Shown here: positions 1,447 to 15,145 of the stretch, one piece after another | Layout: each line of letters begins with the position of its first letter | Numbering within the stretch: position 1 is the stretch's first letter | IMG/VR virus record: IMGVR_UViG_2617270941_000006 | Reading direction: 5' to 3' (one strand) | Length of the DNA stretch: 15,145 nucleotides | Origin: a virus | Taxonomy: Duplodnaviria; Heunggongvirae; Uroviricota; Caudoviricetes | Made by a program: the position numbers and the translations under genes | The notes under the pieces: generated by a model | Databases searched by the model: none | The model's input: the letters and a program-made list of their open reading frames with translations, nothing else | What the model was told of the DNA's origin: nothing

Positions 1447-1533
1447 GCTGAAAAACATAACCCATAAAATGCTAGCTGTACCAGGAACCACCTCCTTAGC
1501 CTGTGTAATCTCCCTTACACGGGCTTATTTTTT
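1447..1533 (+). ncRNA. cyaR: CyaR (RyeE) Hfq-dependent small RNA
   Basis: The stretch gctgaaaaacataacccataaaatgctagctgtaccaggaaccacctccttagcctgtgtaatctcccttacacgggcttatttttt matches my recollection of E. coli CyaR. It ends in a stem-loop (cctgtgtaa / ttacacggg) followed by a U-run, and sits between yegQ and P2-derived genes as in E. coli K-12. Confidence 0.8.
1507..1533. other. P2-type attachment-site core (prophage/host junction), coinciding with the 3' terminator of cyaR
   Basis: aatctcccttacacgggcttatttttt is the reverse complement of the 27-nt P2 att core as I recall it (AAAAAATAAGCCCGTGTAAGGGAGATT). It lies about 100 nt from the ogr stop, the distance expected between ogr and attP in P2. 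The core sequence is from memory and not verified. Confidence 0.55.
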
Positions 1534-1597
1534 ACGTACAACAAATTGAAATAAAAGGATTTATTTCTGGTCACGTCCACACATTGACCACATCGAC

Positions 1598-1631
1598 AAA
1601 AAAAGCCCCTCGACTGAGGGGCTTTCTGTTT
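1598..1631 (-). terminator. Rho-independent terminator downstream of ogr (structurally bidirectional)
   Basis: GC-rich hairpin gcccctc-gact-gaggggc flanked by a 7-A run on the plus side (7 U on the minus-strand transcript) and tttctgttt on the other side. It lies immediately 3' of the ogr stop at 1636-1638. Confidence 0.7.
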
Positions 1632-1635
1632 GTAA

Positions 1636-2043
1636 TTACATCCACATAATTTGCTGCCCTGACGGCAACGGGTGCGGCCTTACGGCGTGGACTTCTCCCG
1701 GCTTCACGATGTATCTCTGTACCGACTCATAGGTGATGAACGTGGCGCTGCAATTCACGTTCTGACACTGGTGATAACGCTCTTTTGTCGTGTCAGTGAT
1801 ATAGCGGCTTGTACGCGCATGTGCGGCATGCTGGCATACCGTGAGTGCACTGGTTTCGGGTTCATATTCAATCACCGCCCCGTCAGGGAAACGGATATGC
1901 AGGGCATCCTCCGACGCAGACGGCGCGGGGTTATCACCGGAATAAATCCCCGGCAGAACGAACGCCGTGTCGAGTTCACCGCCCACGGCCAGAATCAGCA
2001 CCTGCTCCCCCAGCCGGTCTTCAAAACGCTTAAACTCATTCAT
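1636..2043 (-). CDS. ogr: In-frame fusion ORF: N-terminal 69 aa of tail-completion protein S joined to Ogr residues 7-72 (late-gene activator lacking its first 6 residues including Cys4)
   Basis: ORF track 1636..2043 (135 aa). The C-terminal 66 aa (CQHAAHARTSRYITDTTKERYHQCQNVNCSATFITYESVQRYIVKPGEVHAVRPHPLPSGQQIMWM) match P2 Ogr from residue 7 on. The N-terminal MNEFKRFEDRL... starts 2 nt past the R stop, where gene S starts in P2. Junction at about 1836/1837. Confidence 0.7.
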   Translation of the reverse strand: MNEFKRFEDRLGEQVLILAVGGELDTAFVLPGIYSGDNPAPSASEDALHIRFPDGAVIEYEPETSALTVCQHAAHARTSRYITDTTKERYHQCQNVNCSATFITYESVQRYIVKPGEVHAVRPHPLPSGQQIMWM

Positions 2044-2503
2044 CCCACTTGCTCACCAGTTCGCCATTGATATAAAGCTCCATCGGGCGGGTGACCGGCT
2101 CCGGCGGCGGGGGTTCCGGGATATTCTTCACATGCAGCGCGCCGTCCACCTCACTGACCAGCGTGCGCTCGGTCAGCATCAGGCTGATGCTGATATCAAA
2201 GCTGCTGTCATTGTTGATGTCTGCATAAAACGTGAAGCCCTTTTTCTGGCCTGCGTCGGTGGTCATGATGTCGGGCTGATTCTCCCGCAGCCACGCCAGC
2301 ACCGGCACGATGAGCAGGTCAAAATCACCGGTAAAGTCGGTCACAATGACATTGAGCGTGTAACGCTTTTCGAATGACAGCGACGTCGCCAGTGTGGAGG
2401 CAATACTCCCGTTATCCACGAATATCCGCAGCATATCGGGGTTAGTTTTCAGTACCGTGACGGCATCAGTCAGCGCCCTGCGCAGGCTGTCGGGTTTGAG
2501 CAT
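2036..2503 (-). CDS. R: P2 gpR-like tail completion protein R (155 aa)
   Basis: ORF track 2036..2503. The protein MLKPDSLRRALTDAVTVLKTNPDMLRIFVDNGS... matches my recollection of P2 gpR, with the same length and position between lysB and S. Confidence 0.85.
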   Translation of the reverse strand: MLKPDSLRRALTDAVTVLKTNPDMLRIFVDNGSIASTLATSLSFEKRYTLNVIVTDFTGDFDLLIVPVLAWLRENQPDIMTTDAGQKKGFTFYADINNDSSFDISISLMLTERTLVSEVDGALHVKNIPEPPPPEPVTRPMELYINGELVSKWDE

Positions 2504-2756
2504 CGTTTTCGTCCTGACAGTGTTTAATCATTTTTACCTGGCTGGCACAGCGCGCCAGCGCGTTCTCAAGCTGCCGGATATCGGCACTTAAATCGCCGTT
2601 CGTCTGCGGGTCACTGCCCGGCATCGGGCAAAGGCTCACTTTCGGGCAGGCGTTGTGGACAATCACTGGCGTCGGTGCAGGCGGGGCGCTGGTGCAACCG
2701 GCGCACAGCATCAGGCAGGTCAGCGCCGTACCAGCGGCGAAAATCTTCGTTTTCAT
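2466..2756 (-). CDS. lysC: LysC-like o-spanin lipoprotein (Rz1 equivalent), embedded out of frame in lysB
   Basis: Internal Met at residue 40 of ORF 2466..2873 gives MKTKIFAAGTALTCLMLCAGCTS..., a signal peptide with lipobox (LCAGC) followed by a Pro-rich segment. It is nested in the +1 frame of the i-spanin gene, the typical Rz/Rz1 arrangement. 96 aa. Confidence 0.7.
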   Translation of the reverse strand: MKTKIFAAGTALTCLMLCAGCTSAPPAPTPVIVHNACPKVSLCPMPGSDPQTNGDLSADIRQLENALARCASQVKMIKHCQDENDAQTRQPAQGAD

Positions 2757-3036
2757 TGAGTAACCTCGTGATGGTTTTCTCGCGCTGTGCTTCACGCTTC
2801 GCGGCGTTCTCCAGTTCCTGACGCAGTGCCACCTGCGCCAGCTCGTTTTTGTCTGCCCTGGTGAGTGCAACATGAAGCTGGTTTTTCAGCATGGTGATGG
2901 TCGTCTGCTGCCCGCTGGCGACGTTGCTCGCCCTGTCCAGTGAGGTGCGCAGGCTGGCGTTTTCATGCTTCGCCAGAAACAGACCGGCCACCGCCAGTGA
3001 TAACAACACAACCAGCACAATCATCAGCTTTGACAT
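2611..3036 (-). CDS. lysB: LysB-like i-spanin (Rz equivalent), 141 aa
   Basis: ORF track 2611..3036. N-terminal transmembrane segment (MSKLMIVLVVLLSLAVAGLFLA) followed by a charged coiled-coil-like region. Length and position match P2 LysB. Confidence 0.85.
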   Translation of the reverse strand: MSKLMIVLVVLLSLAVAGLFLAKHENASLRTSLDRASNVASGQQTTITMLKNQLHVALTRADKNELAQVALRQELENAAKREAQREKTITRLLNENEDFRRWYGADLPDAVRRLHQRPACTDASDCPQRLPESEPLPDAGQ

Positions 3037-3449
3037 GGTTCCCGCACCTCAAAACGCTGACGGCAGGCCGTACGTATCAGCCGGAAGAACACCGATACCA
3101 CGAGATAAATCAGCGCGGTAAAAATCCACCCGGCAGCGACCAGCGAGATAAACGTCGCCACCATCACTACCAGAGCCACCGCCCGTCTGCGCCACGGCAC
3201 CGGCTGCAAAAACAGCGACGTGACAATCTTCACGGCCAGCGATTCCGGCGGCAGCTCCCGCCCGTAGCGTTCCAGTACATACTCTGTGGCATACACGCCG
3301 ACACCGCCGGCAACCACACAGATAACCGTCGCCAGAATCGCCCAGGCGGCGACAAAATTGACGGCCACGCTCTGCGGGTAAATCAGGGACAGTGCCAGCA
3401 TCAGCGCCAGCGACACGTTCAGCATCAGTGAAAGGGATAATTTCTTCAT
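3024..3449 (-). CDS. lysA: LysA-like membrane protein (lysis timing / holin-associated), 141 aa
   Basis: Starts at the internal ATG at residue 35 of ORF 3024..3551 (MKKLSLSLMLNVSLALMLALSLIYPQ...). The protein is highly hydrophobic with multiple transmembrane segments, and this start gives the P2 LysA length of 141 aa. The 3551 TTG start is treated as an artefactual extension. Confidence 0.75.
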   Translation of the reverse strand: MKKLSLSLMLNVSLALMLALSLIYPQSVAVNFVAAWAILATVICVVAGGVGVYATEYVLERYGRELPPESLAVKIVTSLFLQPVPWRRRAVALVVMVATFISLVAAGWIFTALIYLVVSVFFRLIRTACRQRFEVREPCQS

Positions 3450-3465
3450 GGTGTTTACTCCGTTT

Positions 3466-3561
3466 TGCGGCGAACACGGTCTCAACCACGCCCTCAGTGC
3501 GCCCGTAATACCGGACACAGATAGCGTCGAGCGTGTCGCCCTGTAGCGCAAAGGTCTTCAT
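3466..3561 (-). pseudogene. X: Truncated gpX (tail protein X) stub: first about 32 codons only, reading through out of frame into lysA
   Basis: ORF 3049..3630 contains MKTFALQGDTLDAICVRYYGRTEGVVETVFAA, matching the N-terminus of P2 gpX, starting at an ATG that overlaps the L stop (tcat at about 3558-3561). After about 32 residues the frame continues into lysA sequence in the wrong frame. The genes expected between X and lysA (Y holin, K endolysin) are absent. Confidence 0.6.
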
Positions 3562-4070
3562 CAGATTTGACTCACGATGCAGCGCGGCTTGTCCTGGATG
3601 CGCGCCACTGCCCAGCGCATATCCCGCCACAGCTCATCAATGGTGCTGTCAATGCTGTCGGCCTTCTTGTCGCCTTTCGCACTGGCATCCACGCCGCGAT
3701 AACGCTCATAAAGCGATGCGGTCGCCATCGCACACACGGCGCGCTCGTAGTAAAAAACTTTGATGCTTTCACCGTCGATGTCGTCCGCCGGGACGTCCGC
3801 CAGACGCGTAAAACCGGCAGCAATTTTCTGTTTGCGGTACTCGTACAGCTCCGCATTCGTCTCCGCCATGCCTGACTTGATGGCCTCACGCAGACGGGCG
3901 GGGGCGACGGTCTGCTCAAGGCGCATACGTTCCCGGACGCGCTTCGGGTCGATATCGGGAAAAAAGAACGTGTTTTTAATCACCGGCTCGTCGCCTGCCG
4001 GTTGCGGGATGACCACCGTACCCTCACCGGACACGGGAGCCTCCTTTCGCGGAATAATCAGCGTCATCAT
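3561..4070 (-). CDS. L: P2 gpL-like head completion/stabilisation protein (169 aa)
   Basis: Starts at Met 21 of ORF 3561..4130 (MMTLIIPRKEAPVSGEGTVVIPQPAGDEPVIKNTFFFPDIDPKRV...), which matches P2 gpL. There is a GAGG Shine-Dalgarno about 5 nt upstream and the length is 169 aa. Confidence 0.85.
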   Translation of the reverse strand: MMTLIIPRKEAPVSGEGTVVIPQPAGDEPVIKNTFFFPDIDPKRVRERMRLEQTVAPARLREAIKSGMAETNAELYEYRKQKIAAGFTRLADVPADDIDGESIKVFYYERAVCAMATASLYERYRGVDASAKGDKKADSIDSTIDELWRDMRWAVARIQDKPRCIVSQI

Positions 4071-4169
4071 GACTACCTCTGAAAAGTCGGGCGGTGGACG
4101 CCGGTACAGCGTCAGGTGATTCACCCTCACTGACCGGCGTGCCGCCCTGGCGCGGGGCGCATTCGGTTG

Positions 4170-4913
4170 TTAACTGGCTTTCTTTTTCGGGCGTCCACGT
4201 TTTGCCGGTGTCACGCTCCGGCTCTTACGCGGGGTACGGGTGGCCGCTTTGGGCTGCGGCTCCGGCTTCGGTTTCAGCTCCCGCTCCAGTCGTTCAATCT
4301 CTTTTTTGACACCTGCCTGACAGTCGAGCTGTGTCGCACGTTGCAGGTGAGCCAGCGCACCGGCGGCATCACCACCATCACGCAGAAACAGACCTGTGAT
4401 TTTGTGCAGCTTTGCGCGCACTTCATCAGGCATGTCAGCCGTGGCGGTCAGTTCAAGGGTCTCCGTCAGCAGGCGGGTATCCACAGACTCACCGGCAGCG
4501 TGAGCACGCATGGCCGCGAGCGCCACCTCCTCGGTGAACATGTACGGCGGGGTGCGGCGGTGTTTACCCGGCATGGTCAGACCGTACTTCAGGGCATAAC
4601 GGGCAATCTCCAGCGCACCGGCAATATCGCCGGTATCCAGACGCCACAGCATGACCGTCATCAGAATGTCATCCTGTGCACCTTTGCCCTGCTCCAGCAC
4701 GCCGTTCACCCACGGCAACCAGAACGGCAGCAGTTCGCGTTTTTTCGCGGCCTTCAGCTCTTTTGAATAAATCGCTTTCAGTGTGCGCTGGTCTGCGGCG
4801 AGCTTAACCAGCATCTGCTCATAGACAGTTGCATGTCGCAGCGGGGCGGCTTCCCGCTGCGCGGTCATCGCTGCCGAGACCCGCATCATGTGGCGCTGTG
4901 CGGGACTCGTCAT
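4170..4913 (-). CDS. M: P2 gpM-like terminase small (endonuclease) subunit, 247 aa
   Basis: ORF track 4170..4913. The sequence MTSPAQRHMMRVSAAMTAQREAAPLRHATVYEQMLVKLAADQRTLKAIYS... matches recalled P2 gpM, with a basic Lys/Arg/Pro-rich C-terminal tail. Length 247 aa as in P2. Confidence 0.9.
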   Translation of the reverse strand: MTSPAQRHMMRVSAAMTAQREAAPLRHATVYEQMLVKLAADQRTLKAIYSKELKAAKKRELLPFWLPWVNGVLEQGKGAQDDILMTVMLWRLDTGDIAGALEIARYALKYGLTMPGKHRRTPPYMFTEEVALAAMRAHAAGESVDTRLLTETLELTATADMPDEVRAKLHKITGLFLRDGGDAAGALAHLQRATQLDCQAGVKKEIERLERELKPKPEPQPKAATRTPRKSRSVTPAKRGRPKKKAS

Positions 4914-4916
4914 CGG

Positions 4917-5990
4917 TTACGCTCCCGGCTCTGCGGTCGCTTTAGCCAGTGTGGAGAAATCACCGACCTTAATTTTTTCCACCAGACAACCGGCGGCGTA
5001 GTCTTCCACCACGTAATCAATGTTCATTGACTCGTAGTTCTCCACGCGGTCGAGTTTCGGGTTTTCCTCAATCACGCGGCGATGGCTGTCATCCATGTAG
5101 TAGATGGACAGGTTTTCCAGCTTCGTGATGAGCATCGCATCCGCCGGGAAGTACGGGACGCGTACCGCTGGCAGGTTACCGATGCGTTTCTGGCTGATGA
5201 TGACGTCAGCGGCCAGCATTTCGCTGTTGTCCTGCTCCTTGTTAACGATGGGGAAATACTTGTCCGCCAGTAACTGACGTCCCACTATCACCACAAGGTC
5301 AGGGTCTTCCTGATACCACGGTTCGATCAGGTTGTTGGTCGCATCCATCACCAGTGCATCAAGGCTGGCATAATCACCGCCCTTACCCACACGGATGACC
5401 TCAGAGGTCGTGTGACCTTCCTCGTCAGTGACCTTGCTCATCACGCGCGCCGGTGCTTCATTGCGGTATTTCTGCAGCCAGCCGACCGCCACATCCTGCA
5501 ACATCGGATTACTGTTGCGGTCAGAGGTTTCGGCACGCTTCACGCCGTTAAAACCGGCCATGATGAAATCAAGGGACTGGCGTTTGATAATGGCGTTACG
5601 GATACGGAGCTGGAAATCCTGATAACGCGCCCACAGGTCAAGCGTTTTGTAGCGGATATAAAAATCGAAGTTAACCTGGTCGCATTCGTACTTGTTTGAC
5701 GCCAGCTTCGAGAAGTCCTTCGGCTGACGCTCGGTGCCACCGGCGGTGTCGGTGGTGCTGGCGATGGAGCCGGTGACACCGATACCAATTTTTTCCCCTT
5801 TCATTTCGCTGACCGGCACAATGTTGATGCGGGTCAGAAAGTCAGAGGACTCCTGCATGGTGTTCATCAGGGTCTGGGTGACCGACGGTTCAACGGTGAA
5901 TTTTTTCGACACATCACCGGCGTCGATGCCGTTCAGTTCGGCAACACGGGACAGGTAGGCATTAAATTTAAAGCGGGTTTCCTGGCGCAT
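4917..5990 (-). CDS. N: P2 gpN-like major capsid protein, 357 aa
   Basis: ORF track 4917..5990. MRQETRFKFNAYLSRVAELNGIDAGDVSKKFTVEPSVTQTLMNTMQESSDFLTRINIV... matches recalled P2 gpN. Length 357 aa as in P2, positioned between O and M. Confidence 0.9.
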   Translation of the reverse strand: MRQETRFKFNAYLSRVAELNGIDAGDVSKKFTVEPSVTQTLMNTMQESSDFLTRINIVPVSEMKGEKIGIGVTGSIASTTDTAGGTERQPKDFSKLASNKYECDQVNFDFYIRYKTLDLWARYQDFQLRIRNAIIKRQSLDFIMAGFNGVKRAETSDRNSNPMLQDVAVGWLQKYRNEAPARVMSKVTDEEGHTTSEVIRVGKGGDYASLDALVMDATNNLIEPWYQEDPDLVVIVGRQLLADKYFPIVNKEQDNSEMLAADVIISQKRIGNLPAVRVPYFPADAMLITKLENLSIYYMDDSHRRVIEENPKLDRVENYESMNIDYVVEDYAAGCLVEKIKVGDFSTLAKATAEPGA

Positions 5991-6048
5991 AGTTTTTCCT
6001 GAAATTAAGGGTTAATCGTGAAGGTTTTCCCGGACTGGCTGACGCCGG

Positions 6049-6903
6049 TCAGCAGTTCGTCATCAGGGCGTCACCGCCACCGCCGGTGGCCTTGCTGCGG
6101 CGCTGCTGGGTCAGACTTTCGGTGTGGTCGAGACTGTTTTTCAGGCGGGTGAATGCCTGGCTGGTTTCATCCGCCCTGTCTGTCACCTCCTGCTTAAGTG
6201 CGGAAAAGGCGGTTTCCATCTCAGCGAGGCGCTGCTCAGTGGCGCTCAGTTTTTCCTGCACATGTTCAGCAACAGCGGTCACCGCTTCATGCACGTCATT
6301 CAGACGGGCGTCATCGCTGGCCTGTTTGCGGCCAAAAATGGATTTCACCTTTTCGGTCAGGGCGGTGAACACGGTTTCAGGCAGGTCTTCAAATTCCAGC
6401 TCAACAGGCGTTGCCACTGAAATCAGGTTTTCAGGGCTTAATTTGAAGCGGTTCAGGGGGTTGTGTTTTGCCGTGCGGCAGAATTCCAGGTATTCCGTGC
6501 CGAGGCTTGCCGGGTCATCGGTGACGGCCAGACCCACCAGATAACATTTGCCGGTATTGGCAAAGTTCGGCTGAATTTCCATTGAGGTATAGACCTTCTG
6601 CGCGGCCTTGTTCATCGCGATAAGGTCATCGGTCGGGGTGATTTTCGCAAACAGCGCCCATTTGCCTTTCAGCGCCGAATCATCGTCAATCTTTTCGGCC
6701 TTCAGTTCGGCCACATCGCCATAACGCTTAAAAATACCGTCAGGCAGGATGCCGCGCAGATGTTCCAGGTTAATGCGGCAACCATAGACTCGCGGGTCAA
6801 AGGTTTCGGCCATTTCCTGAATATCCTGCGCACTGATGACACGCCCGTCACAGGTGTCACCCTCAACGCCGATACGAAAGAATTTTGAGACTTTTTTTGC
6901 CAT
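6049..6903 (-). CDS. O: P2 gpO-like capsid scaffolding protein, 284 aa
   Basis: Starts at Met 23 of ORF 6049..6969 (MAKKVSKFFRIGVEGDTCDGRVISAQDIQEMAETFDPRVYGCRINLEHLRG...), giving the P2 gpO length of 284 aa. The cat at 6901-6903 is the ATG on the minus strand. Confidence 0.9.
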   Translation of the reverse strand: MAKKVSKFFRIGVEGDTCDGRVISAQDIQEMAETFDPRVYGCRINLEHLRGILPDGIFKRYGDVAELKAEKIDDDSALKGKWALFAKITPTDDLIAMNKAAQKVYTSMEIQPNFANTGKCYLVGLAVTDDPASLGTEYLEFCRTAKHNPLNRFKLSPENLISVATPVELEFEDLPETVFTALTEKVKSIFGRKQASDDARLNDVHEAVTAVAEHVQEKLSATEQRLAEMETAFSALKQEVTDRADETSQAFTRLKNSLDHTESLTQQRRSKATGGGGDALMTNC

Positions 6904-7076
6904 TGTCAGGAGTCCTGAATAGTGATTAGAGGAGTCACATGTCGGCATCAGTTTCCCGACGATGCGCATCCTCCGCCATCAGTCCCGGATGGCTTATCAC
7001 TGACACAACAGCACCTTAGCGAATCGCGGGGCGCGACTCAGTAGCCTTGCCGTGTATTCATCACGGCGAGGTATTC
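6904..7076. promoter_or_regulatory. Divergent late-promoter region between O (leftward) and P (rightward), expected site of Ogr-dependent promoters
   Basis: A 173-nt intergenic region between divergent late operons, as in P2 where PO and PP are activated by Ogr. GAGG Shine-Dalgarno at about 7065-7068 before the P start. I could not find a perfect TGT-N12-ACA element, so exact promoter positions are not assigned. Confidence 0.4.
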
Positions 7077-8849
7077 ATGACCATCACCACAGACACCACT
7101 CTTTTACACGACCCGCGTCGTCAGGCGGCGCTGCTGTACTGGCAGGGATTTTCCGTGCCGCAGATTGCCGCCATGTTGCAGATGAAACGCCCGACGGTGC
7201 AGAGCTGGAAACAGCGCGACGGCTGGGACAGCGTTGCCCCCATCAGCCGTGTCGAAATGAGTCTGGAAGCGAGGCTGACCCAGCTCATCATCAAACCGCA
7301 GAAAACCGGCGGTGACTTCAAGGAAATTGACCTGCTCGGACGCCAGATTGAACGACTGGCACGGGTCAACCGTTACAGTCAGACCGGCAACGAGGCAGAC
7401 CTTAATCCGAACGTCGCTAACCGCAACAAGGGCGGGCGTCGCAAACCGAAAAAGAATTTTTTCAGTGACGAGGCCATCGAAAAGCTGGAGCAGATTTTCT
7501 TTGAGCAGTCTTTCGAATATCAGTTGCACTGGTATCGCGCCGGGCTTGAGCACCGCATCCGCGATATCCTGAAATCCCGCCAGATTGGCGCGACGTTTTA
7601 TTTTTCCCGCGAGGCGCTGCTGCGCGCCCTGAAAACCGGTCATAACCAGATTTTTCTGTCGGCCAGTAAAACGCAGGCGTATGTGTTCCGCGAATACATC
7701 ATCGCCTTTGCCCGGTTGGTTGACGTTGACCTGACCGGTGACCCAATTGTCCTGGGCAATAACGGCGCAAAACTGATTTTTCTCGGCACCAACTCCAACA
7801 CCGCGCAGAGCCATAACGGCGACCTGTACGTCGACGAGATTTTCTGGATCCCGAATTTTCAGGTGCTCCGTAAGGTGGCATCAGGTATGGCCTCACAGAG
7901 CCACCTGCGCTCGACCTATTTCTCCACCCCGTCCACGCTGGCGCACGACGCCTACCCGTTCTGGTCGGGTGAACTGTTCAACCGGGGACGCGCCAGCGCC
8001 GCCGAACGCGTGGAAATCGACGTCAGTCATAACGCCCTTGCCGGAGGTCTTCTCTGTGCGGACGGCCAGTGGCGGCAGATTGTCACCATTGAGGACGCCC
8101 TGAAAGGCGGCTGCACGCTGTTCGACATTGAGCAGCTCAAACGCGAAAACAGCGCCGACGATTTTAAAAACCTGTTCATGTGTGAATTTGTTGACGACAA
8201 GGCATCGGTGTTCCCGTTCGAGGAGCTGCAACGCTGCATGGTCGACACGCTGGAAGAATGGGAAGACTATGCGCCGTTTGCCGCCAATCCGTTCGGCTCC
8301 CGCCCGGTATGGATTGGTTACGACCCGTCACACCGTGGCGACAGCGCCGGATGCGTGGTGCTGGCACCGCCGGTGGTGGCCGGTGGAAAATTCAGAATAC
8401 TTGAGCGTCACCAGTGGAAAGGCATGGACTTTGCCACTCAGGCTGAATCCATCCGCAAACTCACCGAAAAATACAACGTCGAATACATCGGTATTGATGC
8501 CACCGGCCTCGGTGTCGGCGTGTTCCAGCTCGTGCGCTCGTTCTATCCCGCCGCGCGCGATATCCGCTACACACCGGAAATGAAAACTGCAATGGTGCTC
8601 AAGGCAAAAGACGTTATCCGCCGTGGCTGTCTGGAATATGACGTCAGCGCCACCGACATCACCAGCTCGTTCATGGCTATCCGCAAGACCATGACCAGCA
8701 GCGGACGCAGCGCCACGTATGAGGCCAGCCGCAGCGAGGAAGCCAGCCACGCCGACCTCGCCTGGGCGACCATGCATGCCCTGTTAAATGAGCCACTCAC
8801 CGCCGGTATCAGCACCCCGCTGACATCCACCATTCTGGAGTTTTACTGA
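7077..8849 (+). CDS. P: P2 gpP-like terminase large (ATPase) subunit, 590 aa
   Basis: Starts at Met 11 of ORF 7047..8849 (MTITTDTTLLHDPRRQAALLYWQGFSVPQIAAMLQMKRPTVQSWKQRDGWDS...), which matches recalled P2 gpP. The TTG at 7047 is treated as an extension. The stop overlaps the Q start (tgatga). Confidence 0.9.
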   Translation: MTITTDTTLLHDPRRQAALLYWQGFSVPQIAAMLQMKRPTVQSWKQRDGWDSVAPISRVEMSLEARLTQLIIKPQKTGGDFKEIDLLGRQIERLARVNRYSQTGNEADLNPNVANRNKGGRRKPKKNFFSDEAIEKLEQIFFEQSFEYQLHWYRAGLEHRIRDILKSRQIGATFYFSREALLRALKTGHNQIFLSASKTQAYVFREYIIAFARLVDVDLTGDPIVLGNNGAKLIFLGTNSNTAQSHNGDLYVDEIFWIPNFQVLRKVASGMASQSHLRSTYFSTPSTLAHDAYPFWSGELFNRGRASAAERVEIDVSHNALAGGLLCADGQWRQIVTIEDALKGGCTLFDIEQLKRENSADDFKNLFMCEFVDDKASVFPFEELQRCMVDTLEEWEDYAPFAANPFGSRPVWIGYDPSHRGDSAGCVVLAPPVVAGGKFRILERHQWKGMDFATQAESIRKLTEKYNVEYIGIDATGLGVGVFQLVRSFYPAARDIRYTPEMKTAMVLKAKDVIRRGCLEYDVSATDITSSFMAIRKTMTSSGRSATYEASRSEEASHADLAWATMHALLNEPLTAGISTPLTSTILEFY

Positions 8850-9467
8850 TGAGCAAGAAAAAAGGGAAAACACCGCAACCTGCGGCAAAAACAATCACCG
8901 CCAGCGCCCCGAAAATGGAGGCATTCACCTTTGGTGAGCCGGTGCCGGTACGGCCTGCCGGAATATCTCAGCGCCCTTAATTCTGCCTGGCTGAATGAGT
9001 CGGCCACGCTGTTCCGCCGCAAGTATTACGAAAACGGCGCTCATGCCGGATATATCATGTACGTCACCGATGCCGTGCAGGATCGCAACGATATCGAAAT
9101 GCTTCGCGAAAACATGGTCAAGTCGAAAGGCCGCAACAACTTTAAAAATCTGTTTCTCTATGCCCCGCAGGGGAAAGCCGACGGCATTAAAATTATCCCG
9201 CTCAGTGAAGTGGCAACGAAGGACGATTTTTTTAATATCAAAAAAGCCAGCGCCGCTGACCTGCTGGACGCACACCGCATCCCCTTTCAGTTGATGGGCG
9301 GCAAGCCGGAGAACGTCGGGTCACTGGGAGATATTGAGAAAGTGGCAAAGGTCTTTGTCCGCAATGAGCTTATCCCGTTACAGGACAGGATCCGCGAGAT
9401 AAACGGCTGGCTCGGTCAGGAGGTCATCCGCTTTAAAAACTACTCACTGGACACTGACAACGGCTGA
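8849..9467 (+). pseudogene. Q: Portal gene Q disrupted by an internal out-of-frame deletion (N-terminal 34 codons, then C-terminal about 172 codons in another frame)
   Basis: ATG at 8849-8851 overlapping the P stop gives MSKKKGKTPQPAAKTITASAPKMEAFTFGEPVPV, then RPAGISQRP and a stop at 8978-8980. The portal C-terminal sequence (YGLPEYLSALNSAWLNESATLFRRKYYENGAHAGYIMYV...DTDNG) is in ORF 8931..9467 in a different frame. The total span is about 206 codons against 344 aa for P2 Q. Junction near 8948-8951. Confidence 0.8.
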
Positions 9468-9472
9468 ACATC

Positions 9473-9494
9473 GCCGCCTGCGGGCGGCTTTTTT
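9473..9494 (+). terminator. Rho-independent terminator after Q
   Basis: Hairpin gccgcc-tgcg-ggcggc followed by tttttt, beginning 6 nt after the Q stop. Confidence 0.65.
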
Positions 9495-9636
9495 ACACCC
9501 CGTCATCACGCCCTCACACGCTCACCACCGCACAAAACACCCCGCAGACACACCAATGCCCCGGCTAACAATCTAAACGCCATCACGACGCGCTCAGACG
9601 CTGAAAAAATAAAATCAGCACCACCGCCAGCGCGCA

Positions 9637-9655
9637 GTGCTTTCCCCGCCTCGCC
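9637..9655. other. P2-type cos site (19-nt cohesive end sequence)
   Basis: gtgctttccccgcctcgcc is the reverse complement of the P2 cohesive end GGCGAGGCGGGGAAAGCAC as I recall it. It lies about 170 nt beyond the end of Q, as expected for the P2 genome end. Sequence from memory, not verified. Confidence 0.6.
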
Positions 9656-9772
9656 CGCCCGCTTAATGGGGCGGTTTTAATGCGGGTGCATAACCACTTC
9701 TTACCCACATCAATTCTGGTCAAGCCAAGCAGTACAGCTTATGATTTCAAGATGCAAACTCATGCAGCAATG

Positions 9773-10966
9773 TTAAATTCTGCATCCATCGGTTTGAAAA
9801 TGTGATCCGTTTTTCGAATTCAAACTCAACTCTGTTTGACTCTTTTGAACATTAATAGTTTTACCAGTAAGGACATCCAAAACCCCTGCAGCAACAGCCT
9901 GCGCCAATTTACAAGGCACAGCATTCCCTATCTGACGCCAAATTGACGAATTTTTCCCCACAAAGACATAATTACTCGGGAATGTTTGAATCAAAAGAGC
10001 CTCATCTATCGTTAGTCGACGTAAACGACTAGGTACATCGTGCATATCTTTTGGCTCACCACCATTCATTAGATGATTATGATAAGTCTCAACATAACTT
10101 GTTGAGCCATCATAAAGGTGTTCTTCATCAATAATTGGTGTCCTATTCCCTCCCATAGAAGCAGCTATAGTTGAAGCATACCCATTCGGGTTAATTGGTC
10201 TTCCCTGCCCGTTAAACATCATTCCCGCGTAAGGTGACTTCCGTAATACTGGCTTAGCAGCATTTGTAATCCTTGCATTACAGACTCTTGAATTGTTTGG
10301 ATTACCCGCTCGCCCTAAAGGCCGAATAATCTCACCAACTGTGGGCGAAAGATATTGGTATTTTTTTATCGCCGCCTCAACTCGTTTCACATCATTTTCG
10401 GAACGAAACCCTATAAAAAACATACGTTCCCTATTCTGAGGAACGCCAAAATCTTTAGAATTCAGCACCAGCAAGGCTGAACGATAGCCTGACTTTTCAG
10501 CCATCTTAAACAGTTCACACCTAACTGGTTCAAATTTGGACAACTGTGCTAAAGCCTTAACATTCTCCATAACAAAGCATTCTGGTTGAATTATATCCAC
10601 CGCCCGCATGAATGACATAACCAGCTTACTACGTGGATCATGAGCGTCCATTTTCCCTGCCACAGAAAATCCTTGGCATGGAGGCCCACCAAAAACACAA
10701 CCTATATTTTTCAGCCCAGACAATTCACTTAGCATCTCATCAATATCACCACAAAAAACAGGTGATTCATGATTAAGCTTAAATGTATCACATGCATCCT
10801 TATCTATATCATTGGCCCAAACTGTTCGGAACCCGGCATTAGAGAAACCGACATCCATCCCTCCTGCCCCAGTAAATAAGCTCACCGCTGAAATTTTGTT
10901 CACTTCTTTAGCACCAATTATTCGATTTTGGAATAAAACCAATGATAGGTAAGGATCGACACACAA
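9773..10966 (-). CDS. DNA (cytosine-5)-methyltransferase, Type II R-M modification subunit (397 aa with the TTG start)
   Basis: ORF track 9773..10966. Conserved m5C-MTase motifs in canonical order: LFTGAGGMDVGF (motif I, AdoMet binding), GGPPCQGFS (motif IV, catalytic Cys), ENV (motif VI), QNRERMFFIG (motif VIII), a variable target-recognition region, and RQIGNAVP (motif X). The TTG start has an AAGGTGA Shine-Dalgarno 4 nt upstream; GTG starts 21 or 27 codons in are alternatives. The region is AT-rich compared with the phage backbone. Confidence 0.85.
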   Translation of the reverse strand: MCVDPYLSLVLFQNRIIGAKEVNKISAVSLFTGAGGMDVGFSNAGFRTVWANDIDKDACDTFKLNHESPVFCGDIDEMLSELSGLKNIGCVFGGPPCQGFSVAGKMDAHDPRSKLVMSFMRAVDIIQPECFVMENVKALAQLSKFEPVRCELFKMAEKSGYRSALLVLNSKDFGVPQNRERMFFIGFRSENDVKRVEAAIKKYQYLSPTVGEIIRPLGRAGNPNNSRVCNARITNAAKPVLRKSPYAGMMFNGQGRPINPNGYASTIAASMGGNRTPIIDEEHLYDGSTSYVETYHNHLMNGGEPKDMHDVPSRLRRLTIDEALLIQTFPSNYVFVGKNSSIWRQIGNAVPCKLAQAVAAGVLDVLTGKTINVQKSQTELSLNSKNGSHFQTDGCRI

Positions 10967-10986
10967 TCAATCACCTTCTAAACCAC

Positions 10987-11256
10987 ATGGCAAAACGACA
11001 ACCAACTATACATGATCATAGATACAGGTGCCTAGTCCAGCTTCTCACCAAACTACGCAAAGAAGCTTCTCTTTCGCAGTCAGAATTGGCCATTTTTCTA
11101 GGATTATCACAATCAGATATATCTAAAATCGAAAGCTTTGAAAGGCGATTAGATGCTTTAGAACTATTTGAATTATTAGAGGTGGTTGCAAGCCGATTAG
11201 GTCTACCAATGGATATCTTACTAAAGGACACCTATGAAAGTATTAGTAAATCATGA
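10987..11256 (+). CDS. XRE-family helix-turn-helix regulator, putative R-M controller (C) protein, 89 aa (104 aa if it starts at the ATG at 10942)
   Basis: Internal Met 16 of ORF 10942..11256. HTH segment LRKEASLSQSELAIFLGLSQSDISKIESFERRLDALELFELLEVVASRLGLPMD follows the pattern of R-M controller proteins. It is divergent from the methyltransferase and its 3' end overlaps the start of the downstream ORF by 23 nt (C-R operon architecture). Start codon choice is uncertain. Confidence 0.65.
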   Translation: MAKRQPTIHDHRYRCLVQLLTKLRKEASLSQSELAIFLGLSQSDISKIESFERRLDALELFELLEVVASRLGLPMDILLKDTYESISKS

Positions 11257-12289
11257 GCAAGCCTATAATGTAATTATAAATGCAATCAACGATGCAAAAA
11301 AATTAACTGATTACAAAACAAATAATCAATGGGTCTCCATTCAAAATGTAATTTTAGGCACCCACCTTACATACAGATATATACTTATTACTGGTTTACT
11401 TGCAAAAGCAACAGACCCTAGAGTAAACCCTCTTGCTTTACAAGCTAATGCCCCCGTAGACGGAGCCTATGATGCAAGAAGTTTATGTCATTCGGTAATA
11501 GTAGGCAAAGTAGAAGGCCCATTTTTAGAGGGTAAGTTAGGCGCATCAAATGAGCCATTTCTAAATAAACCTGCTCGTTACATGCTCCACTCCTCTGATA
11601 ACCCTGTGCGCAGAGGAAATGATAAGGTTTTACAACAACTTTCAATTGATATATTACATGCAGCAACAACCCAAACCTTAGCTTATGAAATGCTTGTTAT
11701 TGCATTATATTTTACCCTACAGCGAACCAATAGAGTTATAACGCCGAACTCAATTAATTTTGATTTCCATAAGATTATTTATAATATTATATCTCATCCT
11801 TGTGATGGAGAAACATGCGCGATTGCTGCCGCAATTTCGTTACATTTATTAGGTGAACAAAGAGGATGGATAATAAAAGCACATCCCGTCAATCAGGCCG
11901 GTAGCTCCTCAAAAGAGATACTGGACATAGATGTATATCATGACGATATAGTTTTCCTTTCTATAGAAGTGAAAGACAAACCATTTAATTATCAAGATGT
12001 TAATCACGCCGTTTCAAAAGCATCTGCATCCGGGATTTCAAAAGTTATCTTCCTTAAAGGGCCAAGAGCAACAAACTTAGATATTGATGAGTCTCTTGCG
12101 ATTGAGAACGCTGCGACAAAAGGTGTTTCACTAAGCTTTAGTGACGTCATGACATTCACAACAACATGTTATGCGTTATCGCCACTATTAAGTAATGACA
12201 GAATAATAGATTTCATAAATAACACTTTAAAAGACATCAGAGCTAAAGATAGCACTATAGAATACATACAATCCATATTTAAAAATTAA
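11234..12289 (+). CDS. Putative Type II restriction endonuclease (351 aa), family unassigned
   Basis: ORF track 11234..12289. ATG preceded by AAAGGA Shine-Dalgarno at 11223-11228, translationally coupled to the HTH gene. Candidate PD-(D/E)xK-like motif around residues 231-247 (LDIDVYHDDIVFLSIEVK, about nt 11924-11974). Function is inferred from genomic context with the m5C-MTase and controller; the ORF itself is solid, the product call is tentative. Confidence 0.55.
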   Translation: MKVLVNHEQAYNVIINAINDAKKLTDYKTNNQWVSIQNVILGTHLTYRYILITGLLAKATDPRVNPLALQANAPVDGAYDARSLCHSVIVGKVEGPFLEGKLGASNEPFLNKPARYMLHSSDNPVRRGNDKVLQQLSIDILHAATTQTLAYEMLVIALYFTLQRTNRVITPNSINFDFHKIIYNIISHPCDGETCAIAAAISLHLLGEQRGWIIKAHPVNQAGSSSKEILDIDVYHDDIVFLSIEVKDKPFNYQDVNHAVSKASASGISKVIFLKGPRATNLDIDESLAIENAATKGVSLSFSDVMTFTTTCYALSPLLSNDRIIDFINNTLKDIRAKDSTIEYIQSIFKN

Positions 12290-12296
12290 TACTCCC

Positions 12297-12331
12297 GGGA
12301 CAATATAGTTCACAACTACGTTGTCCCTTTT
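12297..12331 (+). terminator. Putative rho-independent terminator after the endonuclease gene, in the convergent gap with gene A
   Basis: Inverted repeat gggacaa ... ttgtccc (17-nt loop) followed by tttt, 8 nt after the stop at 12287-12289. The stem is short and the loop long, so this is a weak call. Confidence 0.35.
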
Positions 12332-12382
12332 AAAACAGTCAAGCAATTGCATTATATTAATTATTTACTTTTTATCACAATC

Positions 12383-14653
12383 TCATAATTCATACGCTCT
12401 CCAATCACATATAACAGGATAACTGAAGCTTCTCCCGTCGTAATTTACAGTTGCCCCACGCGCCAGCGCCTCAAGCTCCCATCGCTGCGGCCTGATACCG
12501 TTCTGAGCAAGGTCAACGCGGATACGGGTGATTTGCAATCGTTCAGACCTGGTCAGTCTGGCCGATGGTGCTATTTCATGCGGTTTTAACGGGCTTCCGT
12601 TTCTTTGCTGACGGTTTGGTGTTATCAGGTCGTGTTTTAATGCGCCCCTGAGCGCCCTCACGACCTCCGGGTCATTCCATTCGATAACACCGTCATCAAC
12701 CAGATTAAGCACTGCTGCGGCGTGTTCAGAAGGTGTGGGAGCCGGTAACGAAGTATCACCACTGGTGAGCTTTCCACAGTTATTGACAGGACTCCGAGGC
12801 GCGGCGATGCCGCTTTTTAAAGTCAAAGGCTCAACGACCGGAACTTTCGGCACAATGCGCCAGTCCGTCGTTCTGGTGATATGAATATGACGCGCGCCGA
12901 GATGCGGCGCGTAAATGCCGACCACTCTCTCGACTTCTTCCTCGTACTCGTTAACGTCATCCGACGGGCTACGGGCGACCCTGACAGTCTGACAATCGCG
13001 CGGGACATTTGCCCCGCCCTGCGCGCTGATATACAACGCAAAATCACCACTGTCTGCGGCGGCGCGTGCAGCCTCGACGCGTTCGTCAAACTCATCAGCA
13101 ATGCTGACGCCGCGAGGCAATTTGCGTAGCTCACGGTAAGCCCCCATTGTCGGCAGGCCAACCGTTTTAAATTGCGGAATGCGCCACGTTGACGCCCATG
13201 CGGTAACAGCCGCGGCAGTATCTTTCAGCGGCCTGCCAGTATCGTTATCGAGCTGACCATCCAGTGCATAGCCGTCGATGTTTTTTGAAATGTATTTCGC
13301 GATATATCCCGCAGCACCGCCCCGGTTAAGGTGTTTTGCCTGAAAACGGTTTCGCGCAGCTCCTCTTTCGTCTCCATCCTCTTTGAGCGCGTAGCGACGC
13401 ATGATTTCGATAATCTGGTTACGCTGGCGTGGATTACAAAAAAGCATCATATGCCAGTGCGGCGTTCCGTCGTGGTGTGGCTCGACGACACGCAAACCGT
13501 AGACCTGTAAATCATTATCCTTGAATGCCGTGCGCATCAGGCTCCAGATATGGCAGAGATAACGCTGCGCATCCTTTGGATTAAATGCCTCATCATTCCA
13601 GCCGTGATTTAGCTGGACGGTTTTACTTTCGCCTTTTCCGACCTGACGTGTCGGGTGATACTTTGACGGCGCGGTCAGCGTGATAAACATCCCCACATCA
13701 CCCTCTGCGGCGGCATAACGCTCAATTCCGGCGATGGTGTTCATCAGCTCCATCCGGCGAATTTCAGGATTAGAAATACTGCCCATCACCTTACTGATAA
13801 GGTCGATGCGCTCGCCGGTTTCCCTGTTTTCAAGGTCACACGATTTAAGAAATTCCAGATTTGCCTGGCGGCGTGCACGCACATCACGAATGGCATGTTT
13901 ACTGGCATAAGGAGAACGGTCTTTATTGACCTCCCCGACAGCAATCAGTAACGCCTCATGCCAGCGCATACGCTGGCCTTTAAGCTGATGAGTCCACCAC
14001 TCATCGTTAAACAGACGGGCAATGGCAGAATATGCCTGCCTCGTAGTTATCTGTCCTTTACGGTATTTTTTCCAGTAGAGCGGGGAAATATTGAAAGCAC
14101 GTGCAGCGCCAGCAACATGACCATACAGGTGAGTCTGCGCCTCATCCGTAAACAGCGATTCTTTTTCGCCATGTGCATCAACCCATGCATCGCAGAGTTC
14201 CTCATACATCATGAAAAGCTGCGATGAGATACGGGCGGCAAACTTTTTCAGCTCCTTGTCATTCATCCCCGGCAGGCGCGCATAGTGGTCACGCTCTGCC
14301 AGAAACAGTAACGACTCGTCGGTGTTCATTTCATGGCGCTGATTCACGCGCTCAATGCGCGGCCATAAACGACGCTGAAAAGTGGATGTGAGGAAATAAA
14401 ACCCGTGCACCGGGCTTTTATTGCGCCGGATGTAGTCATAGCGTGAAGTAAACAGCGAGCGCAAAAAGTAAGGCAGGCGGTTAATCGTGGATAAAACACC
14501 TTGCACCTGACGCATCTCGTCACGTGTAAGGGGTCTTTCGCGCCCGACAGCCTCGCGTGGCGCGTTCCATGCATAAGCACCGGTAAACGCCTTACCGGTG
14601 CCTGCGGCAAATGCTGACGGAGGGACAAAACGCCCGGAGGCTTTAACGGCCAT
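12383..14653 (-). CDS. A: P2 gpA-like rolling-circle replication initiator (HUH endonuclease), 756 aa
   Basis: Starts at Met 15 of ORF 12383..14695 (MAVKASGRFVPPSAFAAGTGK...), the P2 gpA N-terminus as I recall it. HUH metal-binding motif (GTPHWHMMLF) and active-site tyrosine motif (GYIAKYISKN). The upstream gene stops at 14643, consistent with this start. The extreme C-terminus is AT-rich and may be chimeric. Confidence 0.9.
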   Translation of the reverse strand: MAVKASGRFVPPSAFAAGTGKAFTGAYAWNAPREAVGRERPLTRDEMRQVQGVLSTINRLPYFLRSLFTSRYDYIRRNKSPVHGFYFLTSTFQRRLWPRIERVNQRHEMNTDESLLFLAERDHYARLPGMNDKELKKFAARISSQLFMMYEELCDAWVDAHGEKESLFTDEAQTHLYGHVAGAARAFNISPLYWKKYRKGQITTRQAYSAIARLFNDEWWTHQLKGQRMRWHEALLIAVGEVNKDRSPYASKHAIRDVRARRQANLEFLKSCDLENRETGERIDLISKVMGSISNPEIRRMELMNTIAGIERYAAAEGDVGMFITLTAPSKYHPTRQVGKGESKTVQLNHGWNDEAFNPKDAQRYLCHIWSLMRTAFKDNDLQVYGLRVVEPHHDGTPHWHMMLFCNPRQRNQIIEIMRRYALKEDGDERGAARNRFQAKHLNRGGAAGYIAKYISKNIDGYALDGQLDNDTGRPLKDTAAAVTAWASTWRIPQFKTVGLPTMGAYRELRKLPRGVSIADEFDERVEAARAAADSGDFALYISAQGGANVPRDCQTVRVARSPSDDVNEYEEEVERVVGIYAPHLGARHIHITRTTDWRIVPKVPVVEPLTLKSGIAAPRSPVNNCGKLTSGDTSLPAPTPSEHAAAVLNLVDDGVIEWNDPEVVRALRGALKHDLITPNRQQRNGSPLKPHEIAPSARLTRSERLQITRIRVDLAQNGIRPQRWELEALARGATVNYDGRSFSYPVICDWRAYEL

Positions 14654-14918
14654 ATGAGCCAAAAGCCTCTGAACAACGCTTGCTGAGTTGCTCAACCTGC
14701 GCGTTTAAATCAGCAAAAGACTTTGCGCTTCCGGTCAGAATATCGTGATGCATCAGGCCGGAAACGAGCTGGCTTAATTTCGGGTAATAACCAACCACCG
14801 CCAGCCATTCCTGACCGGCGTTTTTACCGCTTTCCGCTCTCTTTTTCTCGTGGAGAATAAACTGAAAGCTGTCACTGGTAACGACATAACGTTCGCCAAT
14901 TTCGATACGAATACTCAT
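14643..14918 (-). CDS. P2 early-operon small protein immediately upstream of A (orf83-position homologue), 91 aa, function unknown
   Basis: ORF track 14643..14918. The ATG overlaps the stop of the upstream zinc-finger ORF (tcat at 14915-14918). It sits where the P2 early operon has small ORFs between B and A. The name is by position only. Confidence 0.55.
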   Translation of the reverse strand: MSIRIEIGERYVVTSDSFQFILHEKKRAESGKNAGQEWLAVVGYYPKLSQLVSGLMHHDILTGSAKSFADLNAQVEQLSKRCSEAFGSYGR

Positions 14919-15139
14919 GCCATTCTCCGGTAATGTTTGTTTTTTGCTTCAAAGACTGACTGACAGGAAACACAACGCGTGGCTGACGGATAAGCCGCAC
15001 GACGGGCAGCAGGTATTGGCGCGTCACACTCTTCGCAAACCAGCGCAGAAGCACCGCAATGTTTTACCCTTGCCGCGTTAATCTGGCGCTCCAGTAATTC
15101 AGCCTGTTGTTCCTGAATAAAATCTACGTTGTCCGGCAT
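14915..15139 (-). CDS. TraR/DksA-family C4 zinc-finger protein (P2 early-operon small ORF, orf82-like), 74 aa
   Basis: ORF track 14915..15139 with ATG at 15137-15139. Four cysteines in two CxxC pairs (HCGASALVCEECDAPIPAARRAAYPSATRCVSCQ), typical of phage TraR/DksA-like zinc fingers. Confidence 0.65.
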   Translation of the reverse strand: MPDNVDFIQEQQAELLERQINAARVKHCGASALVCEECDAPIPAARRAAYPSATRCVSCQSVFEAKNKHYRRMA

Positions 15140-15145
15140 TACCAG

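Follow-up and report, generated by a model that had tools for sequence, protein, structure and literature searches.

As a tyrosine recombinase of the lambda type, the P2 integrase (Int) works on core-type and arm-type sites together with IHF; the locus it prefers in Escherichia coli is known as locI in the older P2 literature, and is presumably the one that we map here to cyaR. Barreiro and Haggård-Ljungquist (1992) reportedly described all three of this preferred site, its 27-bp core and the P2 remnant of K-12. The P2 record itself (AF063097) annotates both the Int sites and the IHF site of the att region. At the level of the target gene, a table in the paper on the E. coli W genome (PMC3032704) gives ‘cyaR RNA’ as the site occupied by Wphi2 (P2) in E. 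coli W, by ogr-D’ in K-12 and by P2*B in strain B, and Bobay et al. (PMC3603311, citing Wassarman et al. 2001) list ryeE in E. coli as ‘previously known to be targeted by phages’, grouping it with ryeB as sRNA targets of phages. The use of cyaR as a P2-type insertion site is already known—site, core and K-12 remnant have each been described before—and the finding presented below opens no new question.

The DNA analysed here is a stretch of 15,145 nt (‘the window’). We see with high confidence that positions 1507–1533 are the attachment junction, on the ogr side, of a Peduovirus (P2-type) prophage sitting at the classical preferred site of P2 in E. coli—the 3’ end of cyaR—and that CyaR is kept intact by an identical core carried by the phage.

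Working from the left of the window, the host gene yegQ (trhP; 1–1362, + strand) is a 453-aa ORF; the corresponding gene on the source contig carries the Pfam Peptidase_U32 domain, and yegQ/trhP is the annotation in E. coli genomes that match at 100%. Downstream of its stop lies the 87-nt cyaR (ryeE) sRNA gene (1447–1533, + strand), placed as it is in K-12 and O26, and assigned through Rfam, fold and conservation. The Rfam family RF00112 (CyaR_RyeE) matches 1445–1530 on the + strand at 100.7 bits (gathering score 47, E = 1.5e-19), over the full length of the model (positions 1–85 of 85), and is the sole above-threshold match in an Rfam scan of the whole window. The segment 1447–1533 folds at −19.8 kcal/mol (z = −3.0 against shuffles) into an anti-SD stem-loop followed by a terminal hairpin. 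The gene is matched in 5,424 of 5,426 complete E. coli genomes and is near-invariant: all but a handful (5,420 of the 5,424) match at least 80% of 1440–1545, and identity reaches 99% or more in 4,773 records.

The terminal hairpin forms the intrinsic terminator of CyaR (1498–1533, + strand), defined by the fold and by scans: an 11-bp stem (1498–1508/1515–1525) closes a 6-nt loop, UCUCCC (1509–1514), and is followed by a U-tail, UAUUUUUU (1526–1533); the same hairpin is recovered both by a terminator scan and by an inverted-repeat search. The U-rich tail is the putative Hfq-binding module of this class of sRNA. Upstream, inspection by eye picks out a putative promoter (1397–1439, + strand) consisting of a CRP-like TTAGA-N6-TCACA element (1397–1412; half-site TCACA at 1408–1412), centred ~42 nt upstream of G1447, and a −10 element, TATCAT (1434–1439). 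A sigma-70 consensus scan returned no promoter for cyaR, a scan that is uninformative for an activator-dependent promoter, though its outcome fits one.

The last 27 nt of the gene (AATCTCCCTTACACGGGCTTATTTTTT, 1507–1533) are identical at 27/27 bases to the reverse complement of the feature annotated as ‘attP’ in the P2 record (AF063097, 24356–24382), which also annotates an ‘Int attP core’ at 24356–24383. We designate this segment the cyaR-proximal, or ogr-side, copy of the 27-bp att core; a P-O-B’ type junction, corresponding to attR in lambda-style naming. Within the CyaR terminator it starts 2 nt below the top of the ascending arm and takes in the loop, the entire descending arm and the U-tail. 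The initial annotation had placed cyaR at 1447–1533, had taken its last 27 nt to be the P2 att core and had described the shared segment as including ‘part of its terminator stem and the U-run’. All of this stands, the stem overlap amounting to 2 nt plus the descending arm; the P2 core given there proved right to the base, and the practical value of the finding is that of a positive control. The core 27-mer is present as a single copy in the window, with up to 3 mismatches permitted, and was found in 0 of 200 dinucleotide-preserving shuffles. Identity between attP and the empty host site covers 28 bp (1507–1534), one base past the core (A1534); the first differences on either side are at 1506, where the host has T and the phage A, and at 1535.

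Phage DNA continues to the right of the core. In a blastn comparison of 1440–1700 with phage records, P2 (AF063097/NC_001895) matches window positions 1507–1700 at 98.5%, with attP, Int, IHF, terminator and ogr being the P2 features that lie beneath the match; over the longer interval 1507–1838 the identity to P2 is 97.6%, with the IHF site, P arm, ogr terminator and ogr arranged in the P2 order. The interval 1534–1838 thus comprises the IHF site and Int P arm of P2, followed by the terminator and the greater part of ogr. By alignment, the IHF binding site of the P2 att region occupies 1532–1565 (P2 24324–24357; one mismatch) and the Int arm-type binding sites of the P arm occupy 1569–1596 (P2 24293–24320; identical). 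The Rho-independent terminator of the ogr/F operon follows at 1602–1625 on the − strand, supported by the P2 annotation (24265–24288), a terminator scan and an inverted repeat; its hairpin also scores as a + strand terminator. The ogr gene extends from 1636, to the right of the P arm.

To the left of the core is host DNA, 100% identical to that of E. coli O26:H11 11368. The empty site of this strain is 100% identical to the window through the core and A1534 but then diverges, the DNA past the U-run reading ACGTAC… in the lysogen and ATGCAT… in the empty site; base for base, the CyaR of the window is that of the prophage-free strain. We compared the interval 1000–1900 with 5,426 complete E. coli genomes, 5,424 of which match. 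Counting ogr as following cyaR where one place covers at least 80% of this query, the arrangement is seen in 1,129 of the 5,426, including the ogrK/D’ remnant of K-12. For approximately three quarters of the 5,426, homology to the window ends exactly at 1533/1534, a break-point position (query 534/535) that was read from an evenly spaced sample of the records without ogr, drawn from 5,429 matching records; the exceptions in the sample were a record ending at query 537, KV7 (which has a variant P2-like arm) and one plasmid hit. In K-12, ogrK and a piece of gene D come after the same core, and the junction is also present in GenBank record AY639599.

Taken together, these sequence comparisons support the view that the junction is a true Int-type att junction. 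They bear out two further proposals of the initial annotation: that the integrase targets the 3’ end of cyaR, with the P arm and ogr of P2 on the right, host DNA on the left and the break at 1533/1534; and that the yegQ-cyaR locus is the one that hosts the ogrK/yegZ P2 remnant in K-12, where the core leads into the ogrK/D’ fragment. The left boundary of the prophage is fixed to the base, and the prophage start should be annotated at 1507 to 1534, not at ogr.

The window ends at position 15145, which is also the end of its contig (JNQL01000014.1), and the evidence for the int side of the prophage therefore comes from sibling prophages. The exact gpA protein of the window is also found in four loci that reach the int side (L007, L008, L010 and L011), and in all four an identical 27-mer lies just beyond the 3’ end of int; yegR is found beyond int in three of these, with the contig of L011 ending just past the core. 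In L007 the core is followed by the flank TATGCATAAGCCCTATC…, the same as that which follows the core in empty sites. The siblings with identical gpA encode a 337-aa Int (PF00589) and Cox (PF10743), and int, C, cox and the second core are retained in 4/4. The int side of such a prophage would run from the 3’ end of int and the P’ arm (…GTGTCCACACAGTGTCCACAG…) through the core and (T)ATGCATAAGCCCTATC… to yegR. In the complete chromosome of ECJXMCRH7 (L016, NZ_CP067342.1) we see direct copies of the core at 8007 and 34945, bracketing the prophage between yegQ-cyaR and yegR. Among the relatives checked (L007, L008, L010, L011 and L016), none has a different core at the second prophage boundary; we infer that the window’s own genome carries the second copy too. 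The ECJXMCRH7 prophage is itself decaying independently: its annotation marks tail sheath, V, S, terminase and gpA as either frameshifted or incomplete, yet both of its 27-bp cores are kept.

The attP core of the phage duplicates the loop, descending arm and U-tail of the CyaR terminator, and by analogy with lambda-type recombination the P2 integrase, together with IHF, would exchange strands inside the identical core. The body of cyaR would thereby come to adjoin a core that has the P arm and ogr of the phage on its other side, leaving an orphan second copy of the core beside int at the far end of the prophage. The ascending arm of the hairpin would be contributed by the cyaR body and the rest by the core, whichever parent gave each base. 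Because the phage carries a duplicate of the 3’ end of cyaR, integration would rebuild the gene; and since the two cores are identical, the CyaR transcript should keep its seed, terminator hairpin and U-tail in the lysogen. The orphan copy, on the other hand, cannot form a hairpin, as the core covers only the loop and descending arm, and folding of the core without its ascending arm, whether from the int side or attP, indeed gives none. The core of the window is free of variation and CyaR is thus unchanged, from which its expression would also be expected to remain unchanged in the lysogen. The suggestion that the prophage core supplies the functional end of cyaR is right in principle, the CyaR of the window being equal to that of the empty site, with the parentage of each base depending on the positions of Int cleavage. 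On this evidence a phage can land in the terminator of a regulatory sRNA without damaging its gene, and cyaR should be annotated as intact in the window.

What a change in the core might do can be gauged from the O157:H7 strain TR01 (L017, NZ_CP033605.1), which harbours at cyaR a P2-type prophage with a standard core on the int side (32226–32252). On the cyaR side, the junction (262–300) reads …GCCTGTGTAAT|GTCAGTTATTGGTGACATTTTTTGATATC…; from core position 5 onwards, this is the att sequence of peduoviruses that integrate at pflB. The foreign half of the core replaces the descending arm of the CyaR terminator, and the TR01 transcript is predicted to end in a weaker, AU-rich terminal hairpin of 7 bp, with a folding energy for the entire RNA of −15.4 kcal/mol (−19.8 kcal/mol normally). 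TR01 thus illustrates what had been soundly reasoned beforehand, namely that an att-core variant would alter the 3’ end of CyaR, albeit in 1 of 5,426 E. coli genomes and with no such variation in the window. The hybrid junction is either the product of a rare heterologous exchange or an assembly error. Its frequency led us to reject the idea of a common class; homologous recombination between a prophage at cyaR and one at pflB was likewise rejected, since such an exchange cannot shift the break point into the core.

Smaller differences are found elsewhere. In the empty site of A39 (L013, ~385), C replaces T at the terminator base (GGGCCTATTTTTT; GGGCCTA…), giving a natural single-base variant of attB, and the T-run is 7 nt long instead of 6 in some int-side or remnant copies of the core (L007 6322; L014 2035).

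The remainder of the window is a decayed P2-type prophage. By blastn against P2 and the intact sibling in NCTC10973 (L015), it has suffered four internal deletions, with an overlap of 2–5 bp at each junction. The first (1834–1838) joins approximately codon 6 of ogr to the middle of V, at a cost of ~11.5 kb that includes every tail gene from W to D as well as the start of ogr; the second (2011–2012) joins V to the start of S, with loss of most of S and the N-terminus of V; the third (3464–3465) joins K to X, removing X’-Y-K (holin, endolysin); and the fourth takes out 412 bp inside the portal gene Q (8948–8951). Having lost its tail genes, both holin and endolysin, and a portion of the portal gene, the prophage is defective and cannot make virions. 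The first two deletions are in frame and create a 135-aa fusion ORF, S’-V’-’Ogr (1636–2043, − strand), recognised by blastn, translation and Pfam Ogr_Delta: the N-terminus of gpS (2011–2043, residues ~1–11) is followed by an internal piece of gpV (1834–2012) and by Ogr (1636–1838) without its first ~5 codons, such that Ogr no longer has its first zinc-binding Cys (MFHCPLC). The exact fusion protein is encoded on 3 contigs of related draft assemblies, including JNQM01000015.1 (GCA_000704285.1) and JNQL01000014.1 (GCA_000704125.1). The same deletion junctions are absent from all complete E. coli genomes in our collection (5,426), and the full structure of the element consequently rests on the two drafts GCA_000704125.1 and GCA_000704285.1.

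The P2-type late region extends from 2036 to 9683, as identified by blastn against P2 and L015 and by Pfam, with R, lysC/B/A, the deletion of K, Y and X’ (3464/3465), L, M, N and O on the − strand and P on the + strand; the break in Q lies within it, and cos is located at ~9637–9655. Between cos and gpA, in place of the old/tin genes of P2, is a cargo region (9773–12289) comprising a cytosine-5 DNA methyltransferase (9773–10966, − strand), a small HTH protein (10987–11256, + strand) and a SacI-family restriction endonuclease (11234–12289, + strand), assigned through Pfam (PF00145, PF01381 (weak), PF13560 (faint) and PF09566) and the RefSeq annotation of siblings; blastn finds no homology to P2 over 9684–12413. 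The cargo resembles a type II restriction-modification module and is also seen in many sibling prophages, including ones at pflB-pflA. Its position fits the defence hotspot known for P2-like phages (PMC9122126). The early region (12383–15139, − strand) follows, with the gpA replication endonuclease (12383–14653), an orf83-like gene (14643–14918) and an orf82-like gene for a TraR/DksA zinc-finger protein (14915–15139). The contig, and with it the window, ends at the orf82/orf81 boundary, and the assembly break at 15145 suggests that the genome contains another P2-like early region closely related to this one.

That the 27-nt identity is a mere coincidence, or an artefact of assembly with no site-specific junction behind it, has next to no chance of being correct: apart from the draft status of the source nothing speaks for it, whereas the shuffles gave 0 matches, the annotated att architecture of P2 runs on for 300 bp and the same junction recurs in more than 1,100 complete genomes as well as in AY639599. 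Of more substance is the possibility that the element is a one-ended cryptic remnant like ogr-D’ of K-12, having lost int, cox or the second core, so that the cyaR-side junction is a fossil that no longer recombines. The four independent deletions, which total ~13.5 kb relative to the intact sibling and have cost the element its tail, holin, endolysin and portal integrity, are in keeping with this, as are the fusion of Ogr with one zinc ligand missing, the parallel decay of the ECJXMCRH7 prophage at the same locus, and the position of the far end beyond the end of the contig (15145). We nevertheless consider it quite improbable, as the early region (gpA, orf83 and orf82) remains intact and collinear for as far as the contig reaches, and int, C, cox and the second core are kept in every one of the four identical-gpA sibling loci that reach the int side. 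Such a remnant would alter only whether the site is still active, and not the identity of the junction.

A further alternative concerns the direction of copying, and stems from the flank of the empty site. Right after the core, empty sites carry two P-arm blocks, CTGGTCAC and, after 7 nt, CATTGACCACATCGA, identical to the P arm of the P2 family and at the P2 spacing; next comes AATCTCCCTT, which equals the first 10 nt of the core. We find this flank in O26:H11 11368 (L004, 2035–2110), L007 (6322–6250), TR01 (L017, 32253–32330) and also E. coli ECMA0423; the IHF-site region is absent from it. On sequence grounds it resembles a scar left behind by an ancient P2-like element, and a surviving arm-type site of this kind might contribute to the site preference of P2. 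One could go further and suppose that the present cyaR terminator of E. coli is a phage-donated copy, that is, the core of an ancient, fixed P2-like integration, the element having since been deleted to ~75 bp and the host copy having decayed ~75 bp downstream. The P-arm blocks and subsequent 10-mer in the O26:H11 and ECMA0423 empty sites point that way, as does the occurrence of the same flank after the int-side core in lysogens. We think this history unlikely, however: the terminator stems covary genus by genus (at least 120 loci), as they would in a vertically inherited host terminator, and the 10-mer AATCTCCCTT is followed by no recognisable descending arm. Identical cores would lead both histories to the same sequence, and it is for this reason that the two are inseparable here. 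Were the phage-donated origin true, it would mean, together with TR01, that a global, Hfq-dependent sRNA has its 3’ end rewritten from time to time by phages of the P2 family. A similar P-arm relic is seen in Salmonella diarizonae (L117).

The junction can be placed in a broader setting. A scan of species-representative genomes with a CyaR seed/stem/loop pattern yielded at least 120 loci across the Enterobacterales; among the matches listed, the stem arms covary across genera (TGCGT/ACGCA, AGCTC/GAGCT, GGTCC/GGACT and others), thus supporting the terminator structure. Conservation of the loop is not evidence, as the loop is fixed by the search pattern. Again among the matches listed, ogr lies within ~1.3 kb of cyaR in three loci: two assemblies of Citrobacter youngae, ATCC 29220 and CCUG 30791 (L108/L133), and Enterobacteriaceae bacterium G50 (L121). 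Each has a P2-family P arm and a core that matches the local host terminator, ACGCAGGCT(T/A)ATTTTTT, rather than the E. coli version; integrases of this family have therefore targeted the cyaR terminator repeatedly, and the cores of the phages follow those of their hosts. Five other loci (L049, L065, L089, L098 and L124) have P2-like arm sequence after cyaR, with no ogr detected within 2.5 kb. We also considered whether the descending arm of E. albertii, ACGCAGGC, could be a phage-imposed hybrid, an idea that was rejected as a prophage-free Escherichia sp. has the same arm.

Of the described systems P2 itself comes closest. Its 27-bp core is identical, the succession of core, IHF site, P arm, ogr terminator and ogr is the one that we see in the window (97.6% over 1507–1838), and its site is the same host locus, between yegQ-cyaR and yegR-yegS. 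The phage of the window departs from P2 in that a SacI-family restriction-modification module replaces old/tin, and in being defective through its four deletions. The cryptic P2 remnant of K-12 (ogrK and a gpD fragment, yegZ) agrees in junction, core and orientation, with ogr directly after the arm; it retains only ogr and ~210 bp of D, however, as compared with at least 13.6 kb of prophage in the window, and its arm differs at several bases just past the core (ACGCGTAATACAATG vs ACGTACAACAAATTG).

A second att type has its core, GTCAGTTATTGGTGACATTTTTT, just downstream of pflB, and goes with a 331-aa integrase; we find it in NCTC10973 (L015), ZF34 (L018) and phage P24A7b (L019), and the pflB-type att sequence is present in 385 of the 5,426 E. 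coli genomes. The peduoviruses at pflB-pflA (P24A7b, pro483, S164 and similar) have late genes, ogr, P arm and IHF region nearly identical to those of the window, and their core, too, closes with a T-run where a host transcription unit ends; they differ in integrase (331 aa), in core (GTCAGTTATTGGTGACATTTTTT) and in locus. As judged from sequence, only the core and int module differ, which shows att specificity to be a swappable module in this group of phages. Finally, integration at the 3’ ends of tRNA, tmRNA and sRNA genes (ryeB/sdsR in Salmonella, ssrA, tRNA genes) likewise lays the core over a terminal hairpin and tail and leaves the gene intact; the target in the window, unlike a tRNA T-arm or acceptor stem, is the terminator of an Hfq-dependent sRNA.
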